Positions 5,258 through 32,561 of a stretch of DNA of 32,561 nucleotides are shown one piece after another. The notes under the pieces were generated by a model. That model was not told the DNA's origin. It searched no databases and worked only from the letters and a program-made list of their open reading frames with translations. The stretch is from positions 1 through 32,561 of IMG/VR virus record IMGVR_UViG_3300001199_000027; one strand, 5' to 3'. Origin of the DNA: a virus. The translations under genes and the position numbers were made by a program. Each line of letters begins with the position of its first letter. Position 1 is the stretch's first letter.

Positions 5258-6442
5258 ATGGCTAAAGGAATAGGACGCCTCGTGCAGATCGGAATCGCGA
5301 AGGAAACGACCCGCGGCACTACGCCAGCGTCTCCGACGTACTGGATCCCATTCATGGATGGCTCCGAGATCACGGAGAAGTTCGATAACGTACGCAACGA
5401 AGCCGTATACGGCGTGATCGAGGATAACGTCGGCCAGGAGCGCATCAAGAACTGGGCCGAGGCAACGCTCACCGGCAACGTCTCCGATGTGATCTTCCCG
5501 ATCCTCCTCCTTTCGCTCTTCGGTACCGATACTCCGGTCGGACCTACGGACAGCACGTACACGCACACCATGACGGTGCAGCAGGGCGCGCAGCACCAGT
5601 CCCTCTCCCTTTACCGCCACGATCCCGTGAGCGGCGTCGATCGTTCCTACGCTAACGCGGTAGTCGCGAAGCTGGATCTCGATTTCGTCCTCGGCAAGTT
5701 CATCACATACACCGCGACTCTCATGGCGCAGCAGGGCGCAGTACAGTCTTCGTACACTCCGGCGAACACCACGGAGAACCGCTTCCTCCCGCAGAACTTC
5801 GCATTCAAGACTGCACCGACGATCGCAGGTGCTCTCGGTACGCTCACTGCTACCGGAACCGCAGCGACGACCGTGAACGTGACTGCACTCTCTATCAGCA
5901 CCACGCTCATACGCGTCGGTATGACCGTCACCGGAACGAACGTACCAGTCGGTGCAACCGTTGCCGCTATCGTGAGTGCATCCGCATTCACGCTCTCTGC
6001 AGCCACTACTGGCGCAATGGGTACGATCACCTTCGGTCCGCTCGTACTTCCAGTGATCAGTGCAAAGCTCTCTATCGATGCAGGTAGCGATGCGTACCAG
6101 CCACTCGGTACTGTCACCCCTTCAGATTTCTTCAATAAGGAGTTTAAGGCGACTGGCGAGCTCGAGCTCCTCTGGCAGAACGAGACAGATATGAAGAATG
6201 GCGTCCTCGCGAACCTCTCACCAGCGATCCTGATGGAACTCGTGAACACGAATGCCGTCCTCGGCGCAGCGACGAACCCGAGTCTCAAGTTCCAGCTCCC
6301 AGACGTATACTTCACCGAGCTCGGCCAGCCGATCAAGGTAAAGGATATGCTCTCGCAGACGGTGAAGTTCGAGGCAGCATTCTCCCTCACCGACTCATTT
6401 ATGATCAAGGCTATCGCGGTCAACACCGTCGCAGCCTACTAA
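5258..6442 (+). CDS. Major tail (tube) protein with an inserted or C-terminal Ig-like segment
   Basis: 394 aa. The N-terminus GRLVQIGIAKETTRGTTPASPTYWIPFMDGS is typical of siphovirus major tail proteins. The chaperone pair and tape measure follow directly, and there is no sheath/tube pair. Confidence 0.7.
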   Translation: MAKGIGRLVQIGIAKETTRGTTPASPTYWIPFMDGSEITEKFDNVRNEAVYGVIEDNVGQERIKNWAEATLTGNVSDVIFPILLLSLFGTDTPVGPTDSTYTHTMTVQQGAQHQSLSLYRHDPVSGVDRSYANAVVAKLDLDFVLGKFITYTATLMAQQGAVQSSYTPANTTENRFLPQNFAFKTAPTIAGALGTLTATGTAATTVNVTALSISTTLIRVGMTVTGTNVPVGATVAAIVSASAFTLSAATTGAMGTITFGPLVLPVISAKLSIDAGSDAYQPLGTVTPSDFFNKEFKATGELELLWQNETDMKNGVLANLSPAILMELVNTNAVLGAATNPSLKFQLPDVYFTELGQPIKVKDMLSQTVKFEAAFSLTDSFMIKAIAVNTVAAY

Positions 6443-21922: not shown

Positions 21923-22579
21923 ATGCCGATCATCCCGTACCGAAAGGAAGAGGAGATCATGAAAGTGATCCGCCGCGCAATGATCAAAGACCCGATGTAC
22001 ACCACTACCGGGATCCAGATCGCGCTAGCAAAAGCTGGATACGAGACATCATCCGGACATGCTCTTCATCGGCAGTACGTGGAGAAACTGATGCGGAAGA
22101 TCAAGGCAGGCGCCGAGCATTACTCCTCACATGAGCTCGAGCTCGAGCGCATCACGAAGACGCGTGAACGATACAACCTCGTCGCAGAGAGGCTCTTTAA
22201 GATCGCCTTCTGGGATCTCGACTCACTGCGCGAAATGATCCCCATGCCTACCGTTGGAGAGCAGGTATCAGCGCTCAAGGCCATCGTGGAGCTCGATCTG
22301 AAACTGTTCGAGGCAGAGCGCATCGCGGGCCTATTCATGAAGCAGGGCGAGAAGCTGGGCGATGCAGAGTGGAGATTCCGCCCTATGCCGTCCGAGTTCT
22401 ACGAGAACGTGGTGAAGGCATTCTCATCGCATGGCTTCGGACCCGATCGTTTGAAAGAGATCGCTGCACGGGCCGATGCAGCGCGTGCAGCCGCAGCAAC
22501 CCCGATACATGGAACCGATATCACCTCTACCCTCATCCCCGCAGCCGCAAGCGCCGCAAAGCCTGGCGTGGTGGGATAA
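21923..22579 (+). CDS. Putative terminase small subunit
   Basis: 218 aa, directly upstream of and overlapping the large terminase ORF. The N-terminus looks HTH-like (TTGIQIALAKAGYETSSGHALHRQYVEKLM) and the middle is helical. Assignment is mainly positional. Confidence 0.5.
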   Translation: MPIIPYRKEEEIMKVIRRAMIKDPMYTTTGIQIALAKAGYETSSGHALHRQYVEKLMRKIKAGAEHYSSHELELERITKTRERYNLVAERLFKIAFWDLDSLREMIPMPTVGEQVSALKAIVELDLKLFEAERIAGLFMKQGEKLGDAEWRFRPMPSEFYENVVKAFSSHGFGPDRLKEIAARADAARAAAATPIHGTDITSTLIPAAASAAKPGVVG

Positions 22580-22613
22580 CACCCCCTTTAATGATTTCTA
22601 TTTCCGCCAGGAG

Positions 22614-24002
22614 ATGCGGAAGACGCTCGAGGGTTTCTGCCTGGTGTATCTGCCGCATTACTTTTACCTTCCGCCTCCTGATCATGAGCACGAGCTGCTC
22701 ACGGCCCTGGACGACGACGAGCTCAAGCGCCTGCTGATCCTCGGCTTCCGCGGATCGGGAAAGTCGACGGACGGATCACTGGCCCTGCCGCTATACGCTG
22801 CGCTAGAGAAGCCGGATCTCTACCCCTTCATCGTTCCGATCGCCGATACCGGCATGCAGGCAGCACTGAACATCGCCTCGATCAAGTACGAGCTCGAGAA
22901 CAACTGGCTGCTGATAAACGATTACGGGCACATCCCTACCAAGCGCGTGCACGATCAGTCTCCGGAGCCGACGCTCGAGAGTGAAGAGGAATGGCAGGCG
23001 AAGAACCTGCTGCTCGATACCGGCGTGCGTATCCTCGCTCGATCAACCGGACAGAAAGTCCGCGGTATCCGTCATAGGCAGCATCGTCCGAGCCTGGTGA
23101 TCCTCGACGACCCGGAGGACCTCAAGCGCGTGAAGACGAAAGAGAGTCGCGATGCTAGTGATAGCTGGCTGCGCGGCGAAGTGCTGCCTGCAGTAGATCA
23201 GAAGCGCGGCCGTGTGATCGTGATCGGGAACCTGCTGCACATGGATTCGCTGATGGCTCGCCTGCGATCCCGCGGGACGTTCACCACGCTCGAGTACGCA
23301 CTGCTGCGCCCAGGAGACGAACCGGAGCTCGAGCGCTGCACCTGGAAAGCAATGTTTCCCACGCAGGCAGATCTCGATGCGAAGCGGAAGGATATGGGAG
23401 AAGTGTCCTGGCACCGCGAGATGCTGCTCGAGGTCGTCGCTGAAGAGGGACAGGTGATCACTCCCGAGGACATCACGTACTACGACGAGATCCCGGAAGC
23501 GCCCCGCGGCTTCATCGGTCATGGCGTGGACCTTGCGATCGGAAAGAAAACAACGAACGACTATACGGCCGTGGTATCCGGAGACGTGCGATACGTGGAG
23601 GATCGGCCATTCGTCTTCGTGCTGCCGAACGTGATCAACGCCCGGATGGATTTCCATACGACGATAGGGACCCTGGCCGAGATGCCTCGAGCCGGAGGCG
23701 TGCATCTATTCTGCGTGGAGAACGTCGCATATCAGGCCGCAGCTCTGCAGGAGATGGAACGCATGATGCTCGCCGTACGCCCTATGCGCCCGAACACGGA
23801 CAAGCGTGCACGTCTGACCGTCGCATCGACGTACATCAAGAACGGGACCGTACGCTTCCCTCGCACCGGCTGCGAAGCCTTGCTCGCGCAGCTCTTCGGC
23901 TTCGGTGCAGAGAGCCATGACGACATGGTAGACGCCCTGGTGTATCTGATCCTCGGTCTCGCAGAGGAAGGCATCGACCTTCCCCAAGTACACAGCCTCT
24001 AG
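22614..24002 (+). CDS. Terminase large subunit
   Basis: Walker A GFRGSGKST, Walker B LVILDDPED, and a C-terminal nuclease-like segment (CVENVAYQAA...ESHDDMVDALVYLI). The ORF is open from 22476. ATG 22614 is the first start after the upstream stop, so the start is uncertain. Confidence 0.85.
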   Translation: MRKTLEGFCLVYLPHYFYLPPPDHEHELLTALDDDELKRLLILGFRGSGKSTDGSLALPLYAALEKPDLYPFIVPIADTGMQAALNIASIKYELENNWLLINDYGHIPTKRVHDQSPEPTLESEEEWQAKNLLLDTGVRILARSTGQKVRGIRHRQHRPSLVILDDPEDLKRVKTKESRDASDSWLRGEVLPAVDQKRGRVIVIGNLLHMDSLMARLRSRGTFTTLEYALLRPGDEPELERCTWKAMFPTQADLDAKRKDMGEVSWHREMLLEVVAEEGQVITPEDITYYDEIPEAPRGFIGHGVDLAIGKKTTNDYTAVVSGDVRYVEDRPFVFVLPNVINARMDFHTTIGTLAEMPRAGGVHLFCVENVAYQAAALQEMERMMLAVRPMRPNTDKRARLTVASTYIKNGTVRFPRTGCEALLAQLFGFGAESHDDMVDALVYLILGLAEEGIDLPQVHSL

Positions 24003-24020: not shown

Positions 24021-24347
24021 ATGGGATATACTCAAAATATGGAACTACTCACGCATAGCGTGCGCCGCGTCGCATCTCCCGACGATCTGCAGCTACCCGG
24101 GGACTATACGATCACTGATCATCTCGAGACCGGCGGCAAGATCTGCCACTCGGTCATTCTCAACTGCGCATTTTGCAATACCCCGAACGGCCTCGTCATG
24201 CCGCAGCCGAATGTGATCCAGCGCGTATTCGCCTTCCTGGTCCGTGGGATCCGCCCGCTCACCATTCCCGGCGTGATCGTGTGCTACGGCAATACTAAGC
24301 ACCGCTTCGCCGTGCGGAAAGGCGCAATAATCCCAGCCATCGTATGA
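24021..24347 (+). CDS. Hypothetical protein between terminase and portal
   Basis: 108-aa ORF with an ATGA overlap onto the portal gene. Confidence 0.55.
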   Translation: MGYTQNMELLTHSVRRVASPDDLQLPGDYTITDHLETGGKICHSVILNCAFCNTPNGLVMPQPNVIQRVFAFLVRGIRPLTIPGVIVCYGNTKHRFAVRKGAIIPAIV

Positions 24348-26704
24348 ACATTCGAGAACAGGCCGCAGAGGTGATCGGAAAAGGTGCAGCAACCGTCATG
24401 CGCTGGATAGCGCCTACCATCGAGGATTTCCCTACCAGCTACGTCTTCGGAGCGAAGGGGATCATGCCCGGAAAGGACATGCCCGGAGGAACGGACGGCA
24501 TGGTGCTCTGGCGCCCGAGCTCTGGCAAGCGCGTCTCTGCTGCTGCAGCCATGGCTCGCAATACCGGCTGGGTATATGCCGCTACCAAGGCGATCGCTGA
24601 CGAGATCGGAAACATCGAATGGCGCCTCTTCCGGATCATGGGCAACGACGACCAGGAGGAGCTCTTCGATAACGAAGCGTTGGATCTGCTCAATGGCGTG
24701 AACGAGCATCAGACCGGCGTGGAGTTTAAGCACCTGATCGCCTCGCATCTCGAGATCACCGGAAACGCCTACATCCTCATGCTCGGCGCTGACGGCAAGC
24801 CGGTAGCATCGTACACGGATAAGCCGAGCTCCATGACGCTGCTCGATCCATCGCGCGTTTCTCTCACATTCGACAAGAGCAGCTATCCGTACATCGTCAC
24901 CGGATACCGCTTCGTATTCGAGGGCCGTGAGTGGACCTATGCGCCGGAGTGCATTTTGCATATTAAGTATCCGGATCCTAATGATCAGTACGTCGGTATC
25001 GGTACGGTCCAGGGTATCCCTGAATGGCTCGATAACGACCAGGCCGTGCTCGAGTGGAATCGCCAGTTCTTCCTCAAGGGAGCGAAACCATCCGGCACGC
25101 TCACATCGCCGTATAAGACCGAGGCCCAGATCTCTCGCCTGCGTGCAGGGTTCGAGCAGAGCTATGGCGGAGGCATCAAGAGCGGAAACGGGCAGAACGT
25201 CGCCGTACTTCCGGAGGGCGTGAAGTTCACTGCAGACGCTACGCCGAAGGACATGGATTTCGGCACGCTCCTGGACCGCATGAAGGAACGCATCCTCGCC
25301 GGCTTCCGCGTATCGAGCACGATCCTCGGCAGCGCAGAGCAGGATACGAACCGCGCCACTGCGGAGACCGCGGACTATATCTTCGCGAAGCGTACGATCA
25401 AGCCGAAGATGATGCTGATCACTGCATACCTGAACGAGTTCCTGATCCCACGTTTCGGAGAGGATCTCTATCTCTCATTCAATGATCCGGTACCGGAGGA
25501 TAAGGAATACCGCACCACCGAGATGCAGGCCGCAGTCGGCAGCCAGCCGGTGATCTCGATCAACGAGGCCCGTGAGAAGTACATGGGCGCAGGTCCCGTC
25601 GATGGAGGCGATGAGGTGATGGTTAGCACTATGTACCAGCCGCTCGGTGAACCGATCCCAGCAAAGCCAGAGGACGGCGAAGAGAAGGCAGTGATCGATG
25701 TAGAAACGAAGGAGATCGATGCGGAGACGCGCAAGGTAGCGCCGCGCCGTACCAAGTTTACTGCACGACCCGCTGCGGTCCCGGTTTACTACGTGAAGGC
25801 AGGCAAGGTCACGACCCGGCATGCGCGCAATGCGAAGATCCGGGCAGAGCTCTCGGAGGCATTCGCTGAACGCTTCACGAAGCAGCTCGAGGCGATCAAA
25901 GAGAAGAACCTATGGGATCTGACCGATGAGGAGTATTACAACGTCTGGAAGGATTTCGCTTCCCGCGTCGAGAAGTACGAGCATAAGTTCGCCGAGGGCG
26001 TGCGTGATCTGAATGATGATCAGCTCGCGGTAGTGCTCGCGAACCTATCGAACGCGACCGGCGTCACGAAGGACGTGGATCCATCCAAGCTCTTTGACGT
26101 CGACAAGTGGACCTCACTCATGATCGATTTCGCAGGACCGCTCCTCAAGAAGCTAGGCAAGGCTGAAGCCGTGCATGCAGCCAATGCGATCGGGAAGCCG
26201 GAAGCGGCGAACGTATTCGATACGCCTGAACATCAGGCTGCACTCGATAAGTCGATCGCGCTGATGGCTGACTCGTATCAGAAGACCACGCTCGATGCGC
26301 TGAAGGGCAAGCTGGACGAAGGGATCCGCACCGGCGCAACCCTGTCCGAGCTCGAGGCTTCGGTCCGGGATGTATACGCATGGAGCGATGAGCGCCGCGC
26401 TGCGATGATCGCGAAGACCGAGACGTTCCGCATTGCGAACGATACGACGAAGGAGACCTGGAAGGCATCCGGAGTGGTAGAGACGATCAAGTGGTACACG
26501 GCCGAGGACGATAAGGTATGCGGGTACTGCGACGATATGGACGGGACCGTGATCTCGATCAATGAAAACTTCTACGATAAGGGCGATACTGCAGGCTCAA
26601 CCGTTGCCGGAGAATCGATGGATCTCGACTATTCAGACGTCGGTGCGCCTCCGCTGCACCCTGACTGCCGCTGCTACGTTCGACCGGAAACCGTCACCGT
26701 CTAG
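24344..26704 (+). CDS. Portal protein (HK97 family) fused to a MuF / SPP1 gp7-like head morphogenesis domain
   Basis: The N-terminal ~430 aa look portal-like (NTGWVYAATKAIADEIGNIEWRLF...HLEITGNAYILML...). The C-terminus WYTAEDDKVCGYCDDMDGTVI...PPLHPDCRCYVRP is the MuF signature. Confidence 0.85.
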   Translation: MNIREQAAEVIGKGAATVMRWIAPTIEDFPTSYVFGAKGIMPGKDMPGGTDGMVLWRPSSGKRVSAAAAMARNTGWVYAATKAIADEIGNIEWRLFRIMGNDDQEELFDNEALDLLNGVNEHQTGVEFKHLIASHLEITGNAYILMLGADGKPVASYTDKPSSMTLLDPSRVSLTFDKSSYPYIVTGYRFVFEGREWTYAPECILHIKYPDPNDQYVGIGTVQGIPEWLDNDQAVLEWNRQFFLKGAKPSGTLTSPYKTEAQISRLRAGFEQSYGGGIKSGNGQNVAVLPEGVKFTADATPKDMDFGTLLDRMKERILAGFRVSSTILGSAEQDTNRATAETADYIFAKRTIKPKMMLITAYLNEFLIPRFGEDLYLSFNDPVPEDKEYRTTEMQAAVGSQPVISINEAREKYMGAGPVDGGDEVMVSTMYQPLGEPIPAKPEDGEEKAVIDVETKEIDAETRKVAPRRTKFTARPAAVPVYYVKAGKVTTRHARNAKIRAELSEAFAERFTKQLEAIKEKNLWDLTDEEYYNVWKDFASRVEKYEHKFAEGVRDLNDDQLAVVLANLSNATGVTKDVDPSKLFDVDKWTSLMIDFAGPLLKKLGKAEAVHAANAIGKPEAANVFDTPEHQAALDKSIALMADSYQKTTLDALKGKLDEGIRTGATLSELEASVRDVYAWSDERRAAMIAKTETFRIANDTTKETWKASGVVETIKWYTAEDDKVCGYCDDMDGTVISINENFYDKGDTAGSTVAGESMDLDYSDVGAPPLHPDCRCYVRPETVTV

Positions 26705-28321: not shown

Positions 28322-28455
28322 TGAAGATAGGATTATCCACTTAACCGATACCACGATGATCACTTTCATCACGTATATGGGACACCTATACGCTTGCACA
28401 GCTACGGCTTGCTCGCTCATAGGGGGTCACGTATTCATGCCTTTCTAGGGCAATT

Positions 28456-28491
28456 AACAGCACGCGCACCAGGAATGGTGCGCGTGCTGTT
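28456..28491 (+). terminator. Strong hairpin (16-bp perfect stem, GGAA loop), likely a terminator or insulator before the sulfation cassette
   Basis: aacagcacgcgcacca-ggaa-tggtgcgcgtgctgtt, followed by atactg. The next ATG (28503) is 11 nt downstream. Confidence 0.65.
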
Positions 28492-28502
28492 ATACTGAAA
28501 TT

Positions 28503-28823
28503 ATGATCACTTGGCTAACGGGAAACAGTGGTGCCGGCAAGACGACACTCGCGCACCAAATGCGAAAGCACGAGATCATTCTCGACGGTGATGAGATGCG
28601 AGCAGTATGGCCGGGCCTCGGTCTCACACCTAAAGATCGTCGTGAACAGAATCTTCGTGTCGCACGTCTCGCTAAGACGCTAGAGCTGCAGGGATTCGAT
28701 GTGATCGTTGCCACGATCTGCCCATTCAAGAAGCTGCGCGAGGAGGTGCAGGAGATCACCGGCTGCCGGTTCATCTACCTCGAAGGAGGCCGTGAAGGCG
28801 CAGCATACCCTTACGAAAAATAA
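28503..28823 (+). CDS. Adenylylsulfate (APS) kinase-like P-loop protein, short form
   Basis: ITWLTGNSGAGKTTLA / ILDGDEMR / LTPKDRREQNLRVARLAKTLELQGFDVIVATICPF aligns by eye with CysC VLWFTGLSGSGKSTVA / LLDGDNVR / [35 protein letters not shown]. Confidence 0.7.
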   Translation: MITWLTGNSGAGKTTLAHQMRKHEIILDGDEMRAVWPGLGLTPKDRREQNLRVARLAKTLELQGFDVIVATICPFKKLREEVQEITGCRFIYLEGGREGAAYPYEK

Positions 28824-28834
28824 CTTTTACTGCT

Positions 28835-29257
28835 ATGTGGACGGCCAAGATTACGGATACGAGACTGGTTAATGGAGTGATGCAGGTCACGGTTGAATAT
28901 TCGTGCGAGGATGGAAATATATTTACGGATACGATCACCAGCACGCAGAAGCAGGGAGAGGAGTGGCCGAACAGCATCATCCAGGATCGACTCAAGCACC
29001 TAAGCACCTTTCCAGAGAAGATCGCCGAGCTTGATGCGCGCAAAGAGGAAGTGATAGCTCCGGTAGTCGAGCGCAGGCAGGACGAGCAGATGGGTCAAGC
29101 GAAGAAAGAATATAAAGAAAAGCTGGCGATATTCCACGCATACGTGGTGGCAATTTCCCGCGGATTTACTGGCACCGAGACGCAGGACTTCCTAGAACTT
29201 AAGGGGTATCTCACTGACAATTTCAAACCCGAATATCTCGATTTATTCGGCACCTAG
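28835..29257 (+). CDS. Hypothetical protein between the kinase and the sulfotransferase
   Basis: 140-aa ORF. I recognised no motif. Confidence 0.6.
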   Translation: MWTAKITDTRLVNGVMQVTVEYSCEDGNIFTDTITSTQKQGEEWPNSIIQDRLKHLSTFPEKIAELDARKEEVIAPVVERRQDEQMGQAKKEYKEKLAIFHAYVVAISRGFTGTETQDFLELKGYLTDNFKPEYLDLFGT

Positions 29258-29262
29258 CGCCT

Positions 29263-29847
29263 ATGGATCCCGTCTACCTCATTTCGAGCTTTCGACGGAG
29301 TGGCTCGTCGATGATGGCACGCTGCCTAGAGGGCGGCGGCCTTCCAGTCGTGAAGATGTCGCTCAATGATTCGGAATACAATATTCCGTTTGGCAATACT
29401 GGGTATATTCCTAACCCGAACGGATTCTATTCGATCGAGGGCTATATGGAGTTCGACTTCCCAACATTCTACGAAGAATATAAAGGGCAGGTTTTAAAGA
29501 TACCGCGTACATACATCCGGCTATTGCCTCCTGGAAAATATAAGCTGATATTCATGAATCGCGACGAGAAAGAGATCCTTGCATCCTATCGATCGTTCAT
29601 CGGCTTGCGTGACTGGGGAGAAGTGGAGTCGTCCGTATATTTAAAAGATGTGATATTAGGAGCTGAAAAACAGATCGCAGCAGAGCGTGGTGACATCGAT
29701 ATTATCGAGGTTAATTATAATGAGCTGATGCGAGATCCGCGCGCTGCTTTCGATGCAATTGTTGATTTCGGAGTACCTATTGATCCTGCGGCGGCCGCCG
29801 CTCTCGTTGATCCCGCACTTTATCGGCATCGTTTAGCTGCAAAATAA
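29263..29847 (+). CDS. Sulfotransferase (PAPS-dependent fold)
   Basis: The 5'-PSB-like loop ISSFRRSGSSMM is at 29284..29310. The 3'-PB-like NRDEKEILASYRSF (29560..29586) compares with RNPKDVAVSYYHF of cytosolic sulfotransferases. Confidence 0.7.
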   Translation: MDPVYLISSFRRSGSSMMARCLEGGGLPVVKMSLNDSEYNIPFGNTGYIPNPNGFYSIEGYMEFDFPTFYEEYKGQVLKIPRTYIRLLPPGKYKLIFMNRDEKEILASYRSFIGLRDWGEVESSVYLKDVILGAEKQIAAERGDIDIIEVNYNELMRDPRAAFDAIVDFGVPIDPAAAAALVDPALYRHRLAAK

Positions 29848-29848
29848 T

Positions 29849-30415
29849 ATGGCTACTTCCGGACCAAACTTCCCGACCACGGCGGTTGATGATGCAACCC
29901 AGGGCACTTTGGCGTGGACTAACCCTGGAAATGTGATGGTGGAGGACGGTATCTTTGCTACGCGTTCAGTCTCACCCTCAACGATAACCCACTTTATTAA
30001 GACGACAGGGTACGGATTTTCCATTCCGGCAGGAGCGACTATCGACGGAATCCTTGCAGAAGTGAAGGTAAAGGGAGCTGATACCCAGTCGACTGATAGC
30101 GCTGTAAAAATAGTGCAGGGCGGCACCATAGGAGGAACCGATCAGTCGACTAATGTGCAATTAAGTACCACTCTCGCATATAGAAGTTTCGGAGGCGCAG
30201 CGAATCTATGGGGACTAACCTGGACGGATACCGATATAAATAGTTCAGGCTTTGGATTTTGCTATTCCGTGCGACGAGGAACATCAGAGACATCCTCTAC
30301 CGCGAGCGTCGATGCTATGCGCTTGACCGTATATTACACGCCTTCAGGTGGTGGATCCGTGCAGCAGTCGCAGACCAGAGTCATGCAGGCAATAAATCGC
30401 GCAGCAACGTACTAA
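29849..30415 (+). CDS. Hypothetical beta-rich protein (fiber or adhesin accessory?)
   Basis: 188-aa ORF, Thr/Ser/Gly-rich (…LAWTNPGNVMVEDGIFA…), sitting between the sulfotransferase and the repeat protein. Confidence 0.6.
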   Translation: MATSGPNFPTTAVDDATQGTLAWTNPGNVMVEDGIFATRSVSPSTITHFIKTTGYGFSIPAGATIDGILAEVKVKGADTQSTDSAVKIVQGGTIGGTDQSTNVQLSTTLAYRSFGGAANLWGLTWTDTDINSSGFGFCYSVRRGTSETSSTASVDAMRLTVYYTPSGGGSVQQSQTRVMQAINRAATY

Positions 30416-30424
30416 TATAGAAAT

Positions 30425-31843
30425 ATGGCACGCCTCGGACGAGCACAACCTTTCAAGCCTCTCGTGCAGGCTTTTCGTATTCCCGGTCCCTCGAACTATT
30501 CGCAGGTGTTGGATGAGACGATCACGTTCACCGATTCAATATCGAGGAGTGCAGCACGTCTCTTTTCAGAGACGATCACCTATACGGATACGCTTGCCCG
30601 GCAGGCATTAAAATCATTGCTCGAGACCGTCACGTATACCGATACGCTTGCAAAGATAGCGGCTAAATCGTTCCTAGGGAGCGAGACGATCACCTTCACG
30701 GATACGATGATTCGCAGATCCACAAAGGTCCTATCGGACACGATCACCTATACAGACTCTCTCATCCGATCCATCAGCCGATCTCTCATCGAGACGGTGA
30801 CTTTCACCGATACCTTGCTGAAGCAGGCCACTCGTACTCTCACCGAGACGATCACCTATACAGACTCTCTACTGAAGCGTAGCGGGAAAGTGCTCTCGGA
30901 CACCATGACGTTTACGGACACGCTCATCCGCAGCACAGCTCGTGCACTCACGGAGACGATCACCCTGACCGATACCGTCCTTAAGCAGCTCACCCGAGCG
31001 CTCACAGAAACCATCACCTATACGGATACCGTCGCTCGTCTGGCCGTGCTCACCAAGGCATGCAGCGAAGTGATCGCCTTCACGGACACGCTCGCACGAT
31101 CGACCACGCGCGTCCTTTCGGAGATCGTGACCTATACGGATACCCTGGCGAAGCAGATCCTCCGGACGCTGCTCGAGACTGTCACGTATACGGATAGCTT
31201 CAATGCAGTGAAAGTGACGGCGAAGCTGCTCACCGAGACGATCACGTTCACGGACAGTCTTATACGCCTCGCTGGCAAGGTTCTTTCGGACACGCTGACC
31301 CTGACCGATACGATCATCCGCCGGACCACGCGCGTGCTCACCGAGACTCTGACGCTCACGGATACCATCGTACGCCAGCTCTCCCGATCTCTTTCGGAGG
31401 TGATCACATATACGGATTCCTTGCTACGCCAAGGCGGAAAGGTCCTCGCAGAGACGATCACGTATACCGATGCGCTCACCAAGCGCGCAACGAAGCTGCT
31501 CTCGGATACCGTCTCATTCGTCGATACGATCGCAACGGTTCTCACCTCGGGAGTGATCTCGAAGGTTCTGACCGAAACGATCACATTCACCGATAGCATG
31601 GTGCGCCGTAGTGGGAAGGTGCTCACCGAGACTCTGACGCTCCTCGATACACTCACGCGCCGAACTTCACGCGTATTCTCTGAAGTGATCTCCTTCATCG
31701 ATACGATCGTTTTCGGCACTGTCCCCATCCTCGCTTCATATACGCTGCGTCTCCTGTATCCAGTGGGCGTTATAATAAAACAAGCGCGCCGCCTCTTTAC
31801 TGCAAAAGCTGAAGATCGCGATCACACTATAAAAAGACAATGA
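30425..31843 (+). CDS. Repeat protein: about 22 tandem 18-aa units with core (E/D)T(I/V/L)T(Y/F/L)TD(T/S). Candidate fiber or solenoid.
   Basis: The translation shows ETITFTDS, ETITYTDT, ETVTYTDT, DTITYTDS and similar, each followed by L.R....(R/K).L(S/T). Confidence 0.8.
   Translation: MARLGRAQPFKPLVQAFRIPGPSNYSQVLDETITFTDSISRSAARLFSETITYTDTLARQALKSLLETVTYTDTLAKIAAKSFLGSETITFTDTMIRRSTKVLSDTITYTDSLIRSISRSLIETVTFTDTLLKQATRTLTETITYTDSLLKRSGKVLSDTMTFTDTLIRSTARALTETITLTDTVLKQLTRALTETITYTDTVARLAVLTKACSEVIAFTDTLARSTTRVLSEIVTYTDTLAKQILRTLLETVTYTDSFNAVKVTAKLLTETITFTDSLIRLAGKVLSDTLTLTDTIIRRTTRVLTETLTLTDTIVRQLSRSLSEVITYTDSLLRQGGKVLAETITYTDALTKRATKLLSDTVSFVDTIATVLTSGVISKVLTETITFTDSMVRRSGKVLTETLTLLDTLTRRTSRVFSEVISFIDTIVFGTVPILASYTLRLLYPVGVIIKQARRLFTAKAEDRDHTIKRQ
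30515..31714 (+). repeat. In-frame tandem repeat array, unit about 54 nt, about 22 copies
   Basis: Recurrent strings include ctcaccgagacgatcac... and acgatcacctatacagactctct (both at ~30741 and ~30853). The period matches the 18-aa protein repeat. Confidence 0.85.
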
Positions 31844-32229: not shown

Positions 32230-32561
32230 ATGCACGAAGCACTCATAAAGCTGACTCCTGAATTTCGCGAAAAGTTTGCTGCAGCGATCGGCGCTGCGTC
32301 CTACCTCGAGGTGATCGAGAAGGCGAAGGCTGCAAAAGACTCCGGATCCGATACCGGCCGTTTCCGTGTGATCATCTCAACCGCGGATAAAGACCGCCAG
32401 GGCGAGATCGTGGATCAGAACGGATGGGACACGGAACTTTACATGAAGAATCCAGTGGTCCAGTGGGCCCATGATTACCACACCCCGCCGATCGGTCTCT
32501 GCGATAGTCTCAAGCTCGAGAACGGCCAGCTTGTCGCTGAAGGCTTTTTTGCCCCTGAAGA
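32230..32561 (+). CDS. Prohead protease, 5' part (continues at position 1 after removing the 79-nt overlap; whole gene about 458 aa)
   Basis: MHEALIKLTPEFREKF...GRFRVIISTADKDRQGEIVDQNGWDTELYMKNPVVQWAHDYHTPPIGL is a typical HK97-type protease N-terminus including the catalytic His region. Confidence 0.85.
   Translation, partial: MHEALIKLTPEFREKFAAAIGAASYLEVIEKAKAAKDSGSDTGRFRVIISTADKDRQGEIVDQNGWDTELYMKNPVVQWAHDYHTPPIGLCDSLKLENGQLVAEGFFAPE
32483..32561. repeat. Second copy of the 79-nt terminal overlap
   Basis: Identical to 1..79. Confidence 0.95.

Follow-up and report, generated by a model that had tools for sequence, protein, structure and literature searches.

Why would a bacteriophage keep, among the genes that build its particle, one gene resembling an APS kinase and another resembling a sulfotransferase? 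The preliminary description of this DNA read the three co-oriented genes concerned as a sulfation cassette, in which a kinase that makes PAPS is placed near a transferase that uses it. The answer depends on what the two proteins are, on how regularly they are associated in other genomes, and on how well other explanations account for the same observations.

The window (the whole stretch of DNA that was analysed, 32,561 nucleotides) is a complete circular genome of ~32.5 kb, with an exact terminal overlap of 79 bp. Its three + strand ORFs have the positions and lengths first described: kin106 (28503-28823, 106 aa), p140 (28835-29257, 140 aa), and ST194 (29263-29847, 194 aa). A fourth, tightly coupled ORF on the same strand, p188 (29849-30415, 188 aa), starts 1 nt past the stop codon of ST194 and encodes a beta-rich protein. 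It is followed by the fibre-like p472 (30425-31843, 472 aa, + strand), which is counted here as a neighbour and not as part of the cassette. Around the circle, TerL and portal-MuF are followed by three small genes, the cassette (kin106-p140-ST194), p188, p472, a BppU_N-like protein, the prohead protease, which lies across the contig junction, and the major capsid protein. The cassette had been placed between head genes, and this is true if the contig is taken as a circle. The relatives of TerL and of the capsid protein are all below 30% identity, so the host is not assignable; no tRNAs were found in the window, and the DNA of the cassette had no nucleotide match among 50,697 deposited phage records.

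The strong hairpin noticed just before the first gene is indeed present (28455-28492, + strand). It has a perfect 17-bp stem and a 4-nt loop, lies within a 181-nt gap 3' of a gene encoding a 169-aa protein, and ends 10-11 nt before the ATG of kin106. Its folding energy is -33.5 kcal/mol (z = -7.96), and none of 200 shuffled sequences folds as well. There is no U-tract, a simple terminator scan gives no call, and no Rfam family matches, so that neither a canonical terminator nor a known RNA is supported. The element is probably an attenuator devoid of a U-tract, or an RNA-stability element, that bounds the cassette upstream.

The predicted kinase and sulfotransferase

The translation of kin106 contains all the kinase motifs on which the initial assignment was based: TGNSGAGKTT (residues 6-15), LDGDEMR (27-33), DRREQNLRVARLAK (45-58), and ATICPF (70-75). 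It matches the Pfam family APS_kinase (PF01583) with an E-value of 1.1e-16 and 61.6 bits (cut-off 21.1), over just positions 4-97 of the 152 of the profile, and scores 60.6 with the NCBIfam equivalog TIGR00455, far under the cut-off of 138.7. All 20 sequence matches in the PDB are APS kinases. Searching the PDB with an AF2 model (pLDDT 95.3) using Foldseek gave, among the best 50 matches listed, only APS-kinase entries or PAPS-synthase/ATP-sulfurylase entries carrying an APS-kinase domain, with query-normalised TM-scores of 0.64-0.83 and rmsd of 1.2-5.1 Å (most of the 50 at 2.2-3.8 Å). Identity to the solved enzymes found by either route is 26-36%. Profile and structure searches thus lead to the APS-kinase family and to no other family of P-loop kinases, as expected for the CysC-type protein first proposed.

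The alignment of kin106 across 28 relatives has 18 invariant residues, among which G7, G12, and K13 of the P-loop (GNSGAGKTT, residues 7-15), L27, D28, G29, D30, R33, R46, N50, R52, and I72-C73-P74. The Walker A (GxxGxGK[ST]), LDGDxxR, and DRxxNxR motifs align with those of solved APS kinases, and by homology with those enzymes we take the arginines and the asparagine among R33, R46, N50, and R52 to be the residues contacting APS. The protein shares with canonical APS kinases (CysC, or the domain of PAPS synthases) the P-loop, the DGD motif, the DRxxNxR helix, an ICP motif resembling ISP, and the core fold. In contrast to them, it lacks the helix-loop-helix of the mobile lid and the C-terminal strand and helix, elements that in canonical enzymes lie over the active site and the adenine of ATP and provide contacts to the substrate and to this adenine, and it ends in a conserved GG+xGxxYPYE tail. 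The C-terminal third is missing: residues 3-93 align with residues 25-124 of a solved enzyme of 192 residues, after which 13 residues remain in kin106 and 68 in the enzyme. This short length is conserved, since most of the ~290 metagenomic homologues have 106-130 aa; longer relatives keep the C-terminal strand and helix, and their lid still has just ~8 residues. The possibility that p140 is the missing portion of the kinase was rejected, because p140 has no similarity to APS kinases and the length of 106 aa is conserved among relatives. As judged from sequence and model, kin106 is an APS-kinase homologue that has no lid and is truncated at its C-terminus, and it is predicted to form PAPS (APS + ATP -> PAPS + ADP). 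We infer that the lidless form is catalytically competent; we know of no lidless APS kinase that has been assayed.

ST194 carries both PAPS-binding signatures quoted in the preliminary description, FRRSGSS (residues 10-16) and NRDEKEILASYRSF (99-112). Its match to the Pfam family Sulfotransfer_3 (E-value 4e-5, 24.4 bits) is under the 27-bit gathering cut-off, and 9 of the 14 homologues listed have a precomputed sulfotransferase match in Pfam (eight to PF13469 and one to PF17784). When the profile of the family is compared with the PDB, it retrieves SULT4A1 (E-value 3.4e-5), and members of the sulfotransferase family account for 31 of the 35 sequences with E <= 1. The AF2 model (pLDDT 87.7, pTM 0.85) has sulfotransferase-fold entries as its best 37 Foldseek matches in the PDB, with E-values down to 4.8e-5; these include Teg14, TPST2, StaL, SULTs, and retinol dehydratase. 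The predicted 5'-phosphosulfate loop, SFRRSGSS, lies between a strand (4-9) and a helix (15-24), is conserved in homologues, and aligns in the family profile with tyPKSGTS of SULT4A1. The 3'-phosphate motif would consist of R100 and S108, placed around the end of a strand (93-99) and along a helix (102-112) and aligned with RNPKD..VSY of SULTs; the two residues are eight positions apart, which is also the spacing of the Arg and the Ser in SULTs. Across 15 homologues, R100, E104, S108, and the NPNGF loop are all invariant.

Teg14, Teg12, StaL, TPST2, and cytosolic SULTs have the same strand-loop-helix for the 5'-phosphosulfate and the same R...S pair for the 3'-phosphate. ST194 differs from them by its much smaller size (~194 aa, where solved relatives have 240-300 aa) and by the NPNGF loop of its own, and the TM-scores of 0.42-0.59 and identities of 13-20% are values from which the type of substrate is not readable. 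E104, the N51-P-N-G-F55 loop, and K79 are the invariant candidates for a catalytic base or for the acceptor site, and no catalytic base is assignable among the invariant residues. The fold and the conservation of both cofactor loops indicate that ST194 is a compact PAPS-dependent sulfotransferase, in line with its initial assignment.

Kinase neighbourhoods in other phages and in CPR bacteria

The preliminary description proposed a search for the same arrangement in metagenomic phages, and the pairing of kinase and sulfotransferase (ST) was found in other phage genomes, where ST genes were sought around kinase loci by HMM searches of all ORFs. Sulfotransferases are the commonest Pfam family next to the kinase, downstream and upstream alike, and an ST lies within 1.5 kb of the kinase in 11 of 47 non-redundant IMG/VR kinase loci; in about three-quarters of the phage kinase loci, no ST is detectable in the vicinity. 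Conversely, 6 of 12 non-redundant loci with an ST of the A1 type lack a kinase in the surrounding 3 kb, and contig ends interrupt several of these loci. The ST abuts or overlaps the stop codon of the kinase in three ST lineages: the A1 family, a Sulfotransfer_1-like protein of ~173 aa (L007, L021, L025, L028, L032), and a Sulfotransfer_1 protein of 264 aa (L058-L061). In the window, p140 stands between kin106 and ST194, so that translational coupling between them is absent in this genome. In the unrelated phage L058, the cassette is located between head-completion and tail-tube genes. The other neighbours of the kinase are enzymes that build glycans, not genes of cysteine synthesis, and many related loci have the kinase within glycan-biosynthesis islands (GDP-mannose dehydratase, GT2/GT1, epimerases, methyltransferases, LicD). 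The adjacency of kinase and ST is more than chance, because it recurs in independent phage lineages and conserved homologues exist for each of the three proteins.

A nucleotidyltransferase resembling NMNAT (NT, ~115 aa, signature GRWQPFHxGH...YGRxVG...ISATKIR), sought by the same searches, is encoded in sister phages and in bacteria of the candidate phyla radiation (CPR). It lies beside the kinase or, as in the locus L045, is fused to it, in proteins of ~210-330 aa, the two domains together amounting to ~230 aa. Longer antisense ORFs overlap some of the ST and NT genes in related loci. The NT is the partner of the kinase in about half of the phage loci and in most CPR loci, and one Peribacteria genome (L081) has an ST-NT-kinase operon. 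It was never found together with CysDN, and it may for this reason stand in for ATP sulfurylase. Replacing CysDN beside the kinase in CPR bacteria and phages, it may represent a third type of ATP sulfurylase; if it is a minimal form of this enzyme, its fusion with the kinase would amount to a full PAPS synthase in miniature.

In five loci of Peribacteria/Peregrinibacteria, the kinase ORFs have 578-618 aa. The one scanned among the five (L091) encodes a CysN (GTP_EFTU) fused to a lidless kinase domain and preceded by a CysD-like PAPS_reduct protein, which is the canonical NodQ/CysNC architecture. The presence of the lidless domain in fusion with CysN and downstream of CysD supports a real APS-kinase role.

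The genes flanking ST194 recur as well. For p140, to which no function had been given at the outset, searches of Pfam, NCBIfam, PHROG, and PDB profiles were all negative, and an exhaustive search returned unnamed proteins of ~135 aa, some spurious repeat matches, and nothing else. Clustered at 50% identity, its full-length homologues fall into ~80 groups, and their genes lie immediately 5' of the ST, or 5' of a block of NT, kinase, and ST, in several loci (L001, L002/L040, L063, L067, L127, L129, L132, L135). Of these loci, L067 is on a Paceibacterota contig, which together with the CPR affinities gives a lead to possible hosts. Hence p140 is a recurrent neighbour of the ST194 family, and it may act as an adaptor or in assembly. 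Homologues of p188 follow the ST in all close relatives (L001, L002/L040, L063, L067, L127, L128, L129, L135). The protein of the window has no match in Pfam, NCBIfam, PDB, or PHROG, and its family is widespread (145 matches), with no Pfam domain and with Hint or FN3 extensions in some members; one homologue is found in Symmachiella. We regard p188 as a candidate virion component or acceptor. Both families are much wider than the ST family, which is why their adjacency to the ST may reflect backbone synteny rather than function. A universal backbone pair of p140 and p188 is unsupported, since two phages bearing p188 have no p140.

Proposed sulfation, its acceptor, and the alternatives

The families of the two proteins, their folds, the conservation of cofactor- and substrate-binding residues, and the recurrent tight linkage of their genes all support the sulfation cassette suggested at first sight. 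We estimate at roughly 0.65 the probability that the two enzymes make up a sulfation module encoded by the phage and expressed along with its late or structural genes. APS would be provided by the ATP sulfurylase of the host; kin106, as a minimal lidless APS kinase, would phosphorylate its 3'-OH to give PAPS; ST194 would bind PAPS by the SFRRSGSS loop (5'-phosphosulfate) and by R100...S108 (3'-phosphate), and would then sulfate an acceptor by transfer of the sulfuryl group, with release of PAP. The absence of an ATP sulfurylase, stated in the preliminary description, holds for the whole 32.5-kb circular genome, so APS would have to be host-derived; no nucleotidyltransferase was found elsewhere in the window either. 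Many bacteria reduce APS directly and hold little or no PAPS, and for this reason a phage-borne kinase makes sense. In phages with this pairing, some acceptor is probably sulfated while the virions are being assembled.

The likeliest acceptor, a choice we make tentatively, is a virion-associated protein or its glycan encoded in the same gene block, such as p188 or the fibre-like neighbours, with p140 as a possible accessory. The protein p472 has 22 repeats of ~18 aa, of the form (E/D)T(I/V)T(Y/F/L)TD..., gives weak PHROG matches to tape-measure families and families of unknown function, and has no DNA-level repeat detected by TRF. The aromatic position of its repeats is Y in 9, F in 9, and L in 4, and looks therefore like a core position. 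Tyrosine sulfation of the ETITYTD repeats was set aside on these counts, and it is unlikely that their tyrosines are dedicated sulfation sites.

The same genes could be given other roles. The kinase might be an auxiliary metabolic cysC that raises assimilatory sulfate reduction in the host (APS -> PAPS -> sulfite -> cysteine), with an unrelated ST nearby, which is how viromics papers have read short viral CysC proteins of 109-135 residues (PMC9529941, PMC12482060). The many phage loci that hold the kinase with no recognisable sulfotransferase fit this explanation, as does a marine podovirus-like contig where the kinase stands alone beside a small terminase subunit. Several observations speak against it. 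A CysD query of the PAPS_reduct family had no match in the complete genome (a search that a divergent CysH could escape), the Pfam-scanned ORFs of the genome have no PAPS_reduct or ATP-sulfurylase domain, and the lists of the 25 commonest families upstream and downstream of the kinase, both headed by sulfotransferases, do not include PAPS_reduct. Furthermore, the stop and start codons of the kinase and the ST overlap in three ST lineages, the remaining neighbours make glycans instead of cysteine, and the CysD/CysN-kinase unit of CPR bacteria sits among NeuB, glycosyltransferase/GNAT, and methyltransferase genes. We consider a role in cysteine supply very unlikely. It is also unlikely, if to a lesser degree, that kin106 is no working APS kinase and is instead a subunit binding APS or PAPS, a regulator, or a kinase of another adenylylated substrate, in which case the transferase may rely on host PAPS or on another 3'-phospho-nucleotide donor. 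The match restricted to profile positions 4-97 of 152, the ~68 C-terminal residues of solved enzymes that have no counterpart, the score below the NCBIfam equivalog thresholds, and the NT partner, which leaves room for an adenylate other than that of sulfate in about half of the phage loci and most CPR loci, all point in this direction. They must be set against the invariance of K13, D28, D30, R33, R46, N50, R52, and I72-C73-P74 in aligned relatives, the superposition of a confident model on APS-kinase cores, the place of the canonical CysC domain taken by the lidless one in CysN fusions, and the 3'-phosphate motif of the adjacent transferases, which demands the exact group that this type of kinase installs.

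A further alternative accepts an active cassette and moves its acceptor away from the virion, to a small molecule or to a glycan or protein of the host envelope (with receptor masking, superinfection exclusion, or lysis timing as outcomes). The glycan islands that surround the kinase in many related loci could equally modify host polysaccharide, the best structural matches of ST194 include the small-molecule sulfotransferases Teg14, StaL, and SULTs, and the tyrosine of the p472 repeats is unconserved. The position of the cassette inside a morphogenesis block, both here and in the unrelated L058 phage, and the 1-nt coupling of ST to p188, which follows it in all close relatives, argue for the virion, in both cases indecisively. 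An acceptor outside the particle is conceivable, if somewhat improbable.

Relation to known systems

The sulfation module proposed here is a known logic in a new form. In NodPQ with NodH (sulfation of Nod factors), RaxPQ with RaxST, and the mycobacterial CysDNC with Stf0, a PAPS-forming kinase likewise accompanies a PAPS-dependent sulfotransferase and serves a dedicated product. In contrast to these systems, the pair described here is encoded by a phage, inside a virion-morphogenesis block. Its kinase has no lid and reaches about half of the usual length, and the NodPQH and RaxPQ-RaxST loci differ further by their ATP sulfurylase, which is absent from the window and in whose place sister phages have the NT. 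Our search of the literature found no paper on a coupled kinase-sulfotransferase cassette in phages and no report of sulfation as a phage-made modification, and we know of none. A comparable layout is known from virion glycosylation in mycobacteriophages, whose structural modules encode glycosyltransferases presumed to decorate virion proteins. The modifying enzyme is there also among structural genes; here the group is sulfate instead of sugar, an enzyme supplying the cofactor is added, and the system is known from its genes.

Short viral genes of the cysC type are already catalogued as auxiliary genes under a different functional reading (PMC9529941). For those of the Challenger Deep (109-135 residues), models were built on APS kinases, and the proteins form clusters distinct from cellular CysC; together with cysH, they were assigned to assimilatory sulfate reduction (PMC9529941). 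They resemble kin106 in size and annotation, in a comparison made by description only; the reported partner is cysH, whereas the recurrent partner in our data is a sulfotransferase and the other neighbours are mostly glycan enzymes. If short viral cysC genes usually feed sulfotransferases, readings of them in terms of the ecology of sulfur assimilation change.

An enzyme supplying the donor and a transferase using it, encoded together in a morphogenesis block, would bring a new chemistry to the decoration of virions or host surfaces, and sulfate groups could affect adsorption, the evasion of immunity or defence, and the charge of the particle. The lidless 106-aa kinase is also a natural minimal scaffold on which the requirements of APS kinases can be tested. 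It is possible, though doubtful, that these phages sulfate a protein or glycan of their own particles with the help of this kinase, and that the NT is an unrecognised minimal ATP sulfurylase. If so, this would be the first sulfated bacteriophage virion, and it would be made with the smallest APS kinase known.

Gene order and reading frames around the cassette

The two ends of the window are identical (positions 1-79 and 32483-32561, an exact overlap of 79 bp), which is why we read the window as a complete genome, circular-mapping and some 32.5 kb long. Its G+C content is 56%, it contains no tRNA genes, it has no nucleotide match to deposited phages, and searches with its TerL and capsid proteins retrieved only distant relatives. 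TerL (22476-24002) is followed by a 786-aa portal fused to a Mu-F-like head-morphogenesis domain (24344-26704), and then by proteins of 110, 210 and 169 aa, of which the second weakly matches the podophage GP4 fibre I. A related portal fusion occurs in the unrelated L058 phage. After a hairpin come, directly and in this order, the genes for a 106-aa APS-kinase homologue (kin106, 28503-28823), a 140-aa protein (p140, 28835-29257), a 194-aa putative sulfotransferase (ST194, 29263-29847), and a 188-aa protein (p188), whose ORF starts 1 nt past the stop codon of ST194. Next is a 472-aa protein (30425-31843), probably fibrous, that contains 22 repeats, each some 18 aa long, of consensus (E/D)T(I/V)T(Y/F/L)TD(S/T)LxRxxxKxL; these are too diverged at the DNA level for TRF to find any. 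It is followed by a second 110-aa protein, BppU_N-like, and by a probable prohead protease, whose ORF starts near 32230 and crosses the circular junction, upstream of the genes for the major capsid protein (1136-2323), the connector, and the tail tube (5258-6442). This order places the cassette in an accessory island, with the portal on one side, protease and capsid on the other, and fibre-like genes adjoining, in agreement with the preliminary description, which had put it between head genes and beside fibre-like genes.

The same description had reported three co-oriented ORFs, their motifs, and a strong upstream hairpin: the ORFs of kin106, p140 and ST194 are indeed co-oriented at these coordinates, all quoted motifs occur in the translations, and a perfect 17-bp hairpin (28455-28492) lies upstream, with 10-11 nt between it and the first ATG. 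It folds at -33.5 kcal/mol (z = -8; 0/200 shuffles fold equally well) and lacks a U-tract; a simple terminator scan gave no call and Rfam no family match. The public gene call for ST194 is a 178-aa protein starting at Met17, which drops positions 29263-29310 and, with them, the PAPS-binding loop; the same kind of start cuts off the loop in at least two homologues (P0129, P0132). Since the first 16 residues are kept across the homologue alignment, the correct ORF is the longer one.

A lidless kinase and a sulfotransferase fold

Profile and structure searches concur in assigning kin106 to the APS kinases, the family proposed for it from sequence motifs. Pfam APS_kinase is the top model (E 1.1e-16; 61.6 bits, cut-off 21.1), followed by generic P-loop models at E >= 3e-4, and all 20 PDB sequence matches are APS kinases. 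The AF2 model (pLDDT 95.3) retrieves, among the best 50 Foldseek matches listed, only APS kinases, PAPS synthases or ATP sulfurylases bearing an APS-kinase domain (query-normalised TM 0.64-0.83, identity 26-36%). kin106 covers positions 4-97 of the 152 of the profile, lacks the lid and the C-terminal strand and helix, and scores below the NCBIfam equivalog thresholds. Judged from conservation, the short form is not the result of decay, because most of its 290 homologues, on phage-sized contigs, are 106-130 aa long, 28 relatives share invariant residues (W4, G7, G12, K13, L27, D28, G29, D30, R33, R46, N50, R52, Q63, I72, C73, P74, R79, and F90), and the C-terminal tail GG+xGxxYPYE is kept. Distant relatives of about 150-180 aa have the C-terminal strand and helix, with still only some 8 residues at the lid position.

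Across 185,579 species genomes scanned, the lidless subfamily occurred mainly in bacteria of the candidate phyla radiation (CPR), i.e., Peribacteria, Peregrinibacteria, Parcubacteria, and Saccharibacteria, with many matches on contigs of 100-870 kb. The kinase ORF reaches 578-618 aa in five CPR loci (L091, L096, L108, L115, and L121). In L091, a CysN-type GTPase (GTP_EFTU with its C-terminal domain) ends in the lidless domain and comes after a 303-aa PAPS_reduct-family protein, an architecture that equals the classical CysD plus CysN/CysC (NodPQ); L121 has the same 303-aa ORF before a 600-aa kinase ORF. The APS_kinase footprint in the CPR fusion is again 4-97 of 152. Among the evidence for the predicted phosphorylation of APS by the lidless subfamily, this fusion of domains is the strongest.

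ST194 matches Pfam Sulfotransfer_3 (E 4e-5) slightly below the gathering score; among its 14 homologues listed, 8 match PF13469 and one matches PF17784, another sulfotransferase family. Conserved in the alignment are SFRRSGSS, the 5'-phosphosulfate loop, and, as invariant positions, E104, the NPNGF loop, and R100 and S108, whose eight-residue spacing we take to be the 3'-phosphate motif geometry of SULT and TPST structures. The AF2 model (pLDDT 87.7) places the cofactor motifs on strand-loop-helix elements, and the 37 top-ranked PDB matches to it all have the sulfotransferase fold, including Teg14, TPST2, StaL, Teg12, CurM-ST, SULTs, retinol dehydratase, and Stf0. The family profile reaches SULT4A1 (E 3.4e-5), and sulfotransferase-family proteins make up 31 of the 35 PDB sequences that it matches at E <= 1. 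With profile and structure searches agreeing and both cofactor motifs conserved, as first proposed, the fold is established from the model, an assignment that covers the fold and not the acceptor class.

Recurrent linkage and the source of APS

Among the loci examined, 56 kinase loci from IMG/VR and several long contigs from metagenomes, three separate lineages of sulfotransferase lie directly beside the kinase, and the stop codon of one gene usually overlaps the start codon of the next: the ST194 family (L001, L002/L040, L003, L004, L045, L063, L067), a family of about 173 aa matching Sulfotransfer_1 (L007, L021, L025, L028, L032), and a 264-aa Sulfotransfer_1/3 protein (L058-L061) from an unrelated 43-kb phage, with head-completion genes on one side and tail-tube genes on the other. 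Sulfotransferase genes lie within 1.5 kb of the kinase in 11/47 non-redundant IMG/VR loci. They are the top Pfam family among kinase neighbours, downstream (54 scanned) as well as upstream (48 scanned); glycosyltransferases and sugar-nucleotide enzymes are also frequent, and PAPS reductase is absent from the common families listed in these scans. Reciprocally, ST194-type genes occur in 13 IMG/VR loci (12 without one duplicate), half of which have a kinase within 3 kb, several others ending at contig edges.

In many phages besides these, the mini-kinase is found in glycan-building islands beside structural genes (L065:1-8330, L012-L017, L019, L049), with genes for GDP-mannose dehydratase/epimerase, GT1/GT2, methyltransferase, and acetyltransferase. 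The gene directly after the kinase in L065 encodes a DUF4915/TIGR03032 protein.

The search for the same arrangement in metagenomic phages thus recovered the kinase-sulfotransferase neighbourhood, whereas the kinase-before-p140 order of the window proved unusual. The genes usually run in the order p140-[NT]-[kinase]-ST-p188, where NT is an NMNAT-like nucleotidyltransferase that is absent from the window. Homologues of p140 lie directly upstream of the sulfotransferase, or of the NT-kinase-sulfotransferase block, in at least 8 other phage loci, most of which have a p188 homologue after the sulfotransferase. Both families are wider than that of the sulfotransferase, and Pfam, NCBIfam, PHROG, and PDB profile searches gave neither an assignable fold or function. 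They may be cassette partners or targets, or reflect mere backbone synteny; p188 is, with modest confidence, a candidate acceptor. Its domain is elsewhere fused to Hint or FN3 modules and lies within two Peribacteria proteins of about 1,160 aa (L109:6892-10359 and L117:6775-10284, both on the minus strand), probably surface proteins, which have FG-GAP/VCBS-like DxDGD repeats and an NT-kinase pair some 1.4 kb away. This location hints that the domain is tied to sulfate activation or that these phages infect CPR bacteria. A p140-kinase-ST-p188 block (L067:4578-8163), with the p188 domain N-terminal in a 753-aa protein, lies on a contig of 108,875 bp that binning assigned to Candidatus Paceibacterota, a prophage or mis-binned phage and a possible host clue. 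In a phage without sulfation genes, a 474-aa methyltransferase-domain protein (L138:1118-2542) precedes a 147-aa gene and then a p188 homologue; the position upstream of p188 homologues may be a site that varies in the modifying enzyme it carries.

The complete genome encodes no ATP sulfurylase, and the earlier proposal that APS would have to come from the host holds. Sister phages (L001, L002/L040, L063) carry, directly upstream of the kinase, the NT, a nucleotidyltransferase of the HxGH type, about 115 aa long (PF01467; L001:1284-1646, L063:3678-4004), with motifs GRWQPFHxGH, invariant YGRxVG, and ISATKIR, and an N-terminal half nearest to archaeal NMN adenylyltransferase. It is beside or fused to the lidless kinase in 25/47 phage loci (17 adjacent, 8 fused, the fusions in L042-L056) and 42/50 loci of the CPR set L070-L121 (35 and 7); a further NT of this kind is at L125:2246-2707. 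Long CysN-type kinase ORFs number 0 and 5, and 22 and 3 loci have neither; no locus combines the two. Their complementary distributions suggest that the NT stands in for ATP sulfurylase, as a candidate new minimal form of this enzyme; NMN or phosphopantetheine as its substrate are formal alternatives. A Peribacteria genome (L081) has an ST-NT-kinase operon.

Proposed sulfation by the phage

We consider it reasonably probable (about 0.65) that kin106 would turn host-made APS into PAPS, from which, as late genes are expressed, ST194 would pass the sulfate on to an acceptor. Short viral cysC genes are already catalogued as auxiliary genes, and the literature reads them as assimilatory (PMC9529941, PMC12482060). 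Such a role is disfavoured for kin106: a CysD query, which a divergent CysH could escape, found no PAPS_reduct match in the window, and the neighbour statistics favour sulfotransferases over PAPS reductase. The missing lid would suit a kinase that is non-catalytic or of different specificity, an option made less attractive by the invariance of residues among relatives and by the CPR CysN fusions. As for the acceptor of the proposed sulfation, it is most likely part of the particle, a protein or its glycan, and may instead be the host envelope or a small molecule.

Viral sulfotransferases are likewise already listed as auxiliary genes. In the literature searched, we found no description of cysC and a sulfotransferase as a coupled cassette, nor of the kinase as lidless or of its NT partner. 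NodPQH and RaxPQ/RaxST follow the same logic of PAPS supply plus sulfotransferase. This logic is thus known; the cassette described here differs from those systems, and is new, in being encoded by a phage, in having a minimal kinase, and in lying among structural genes.
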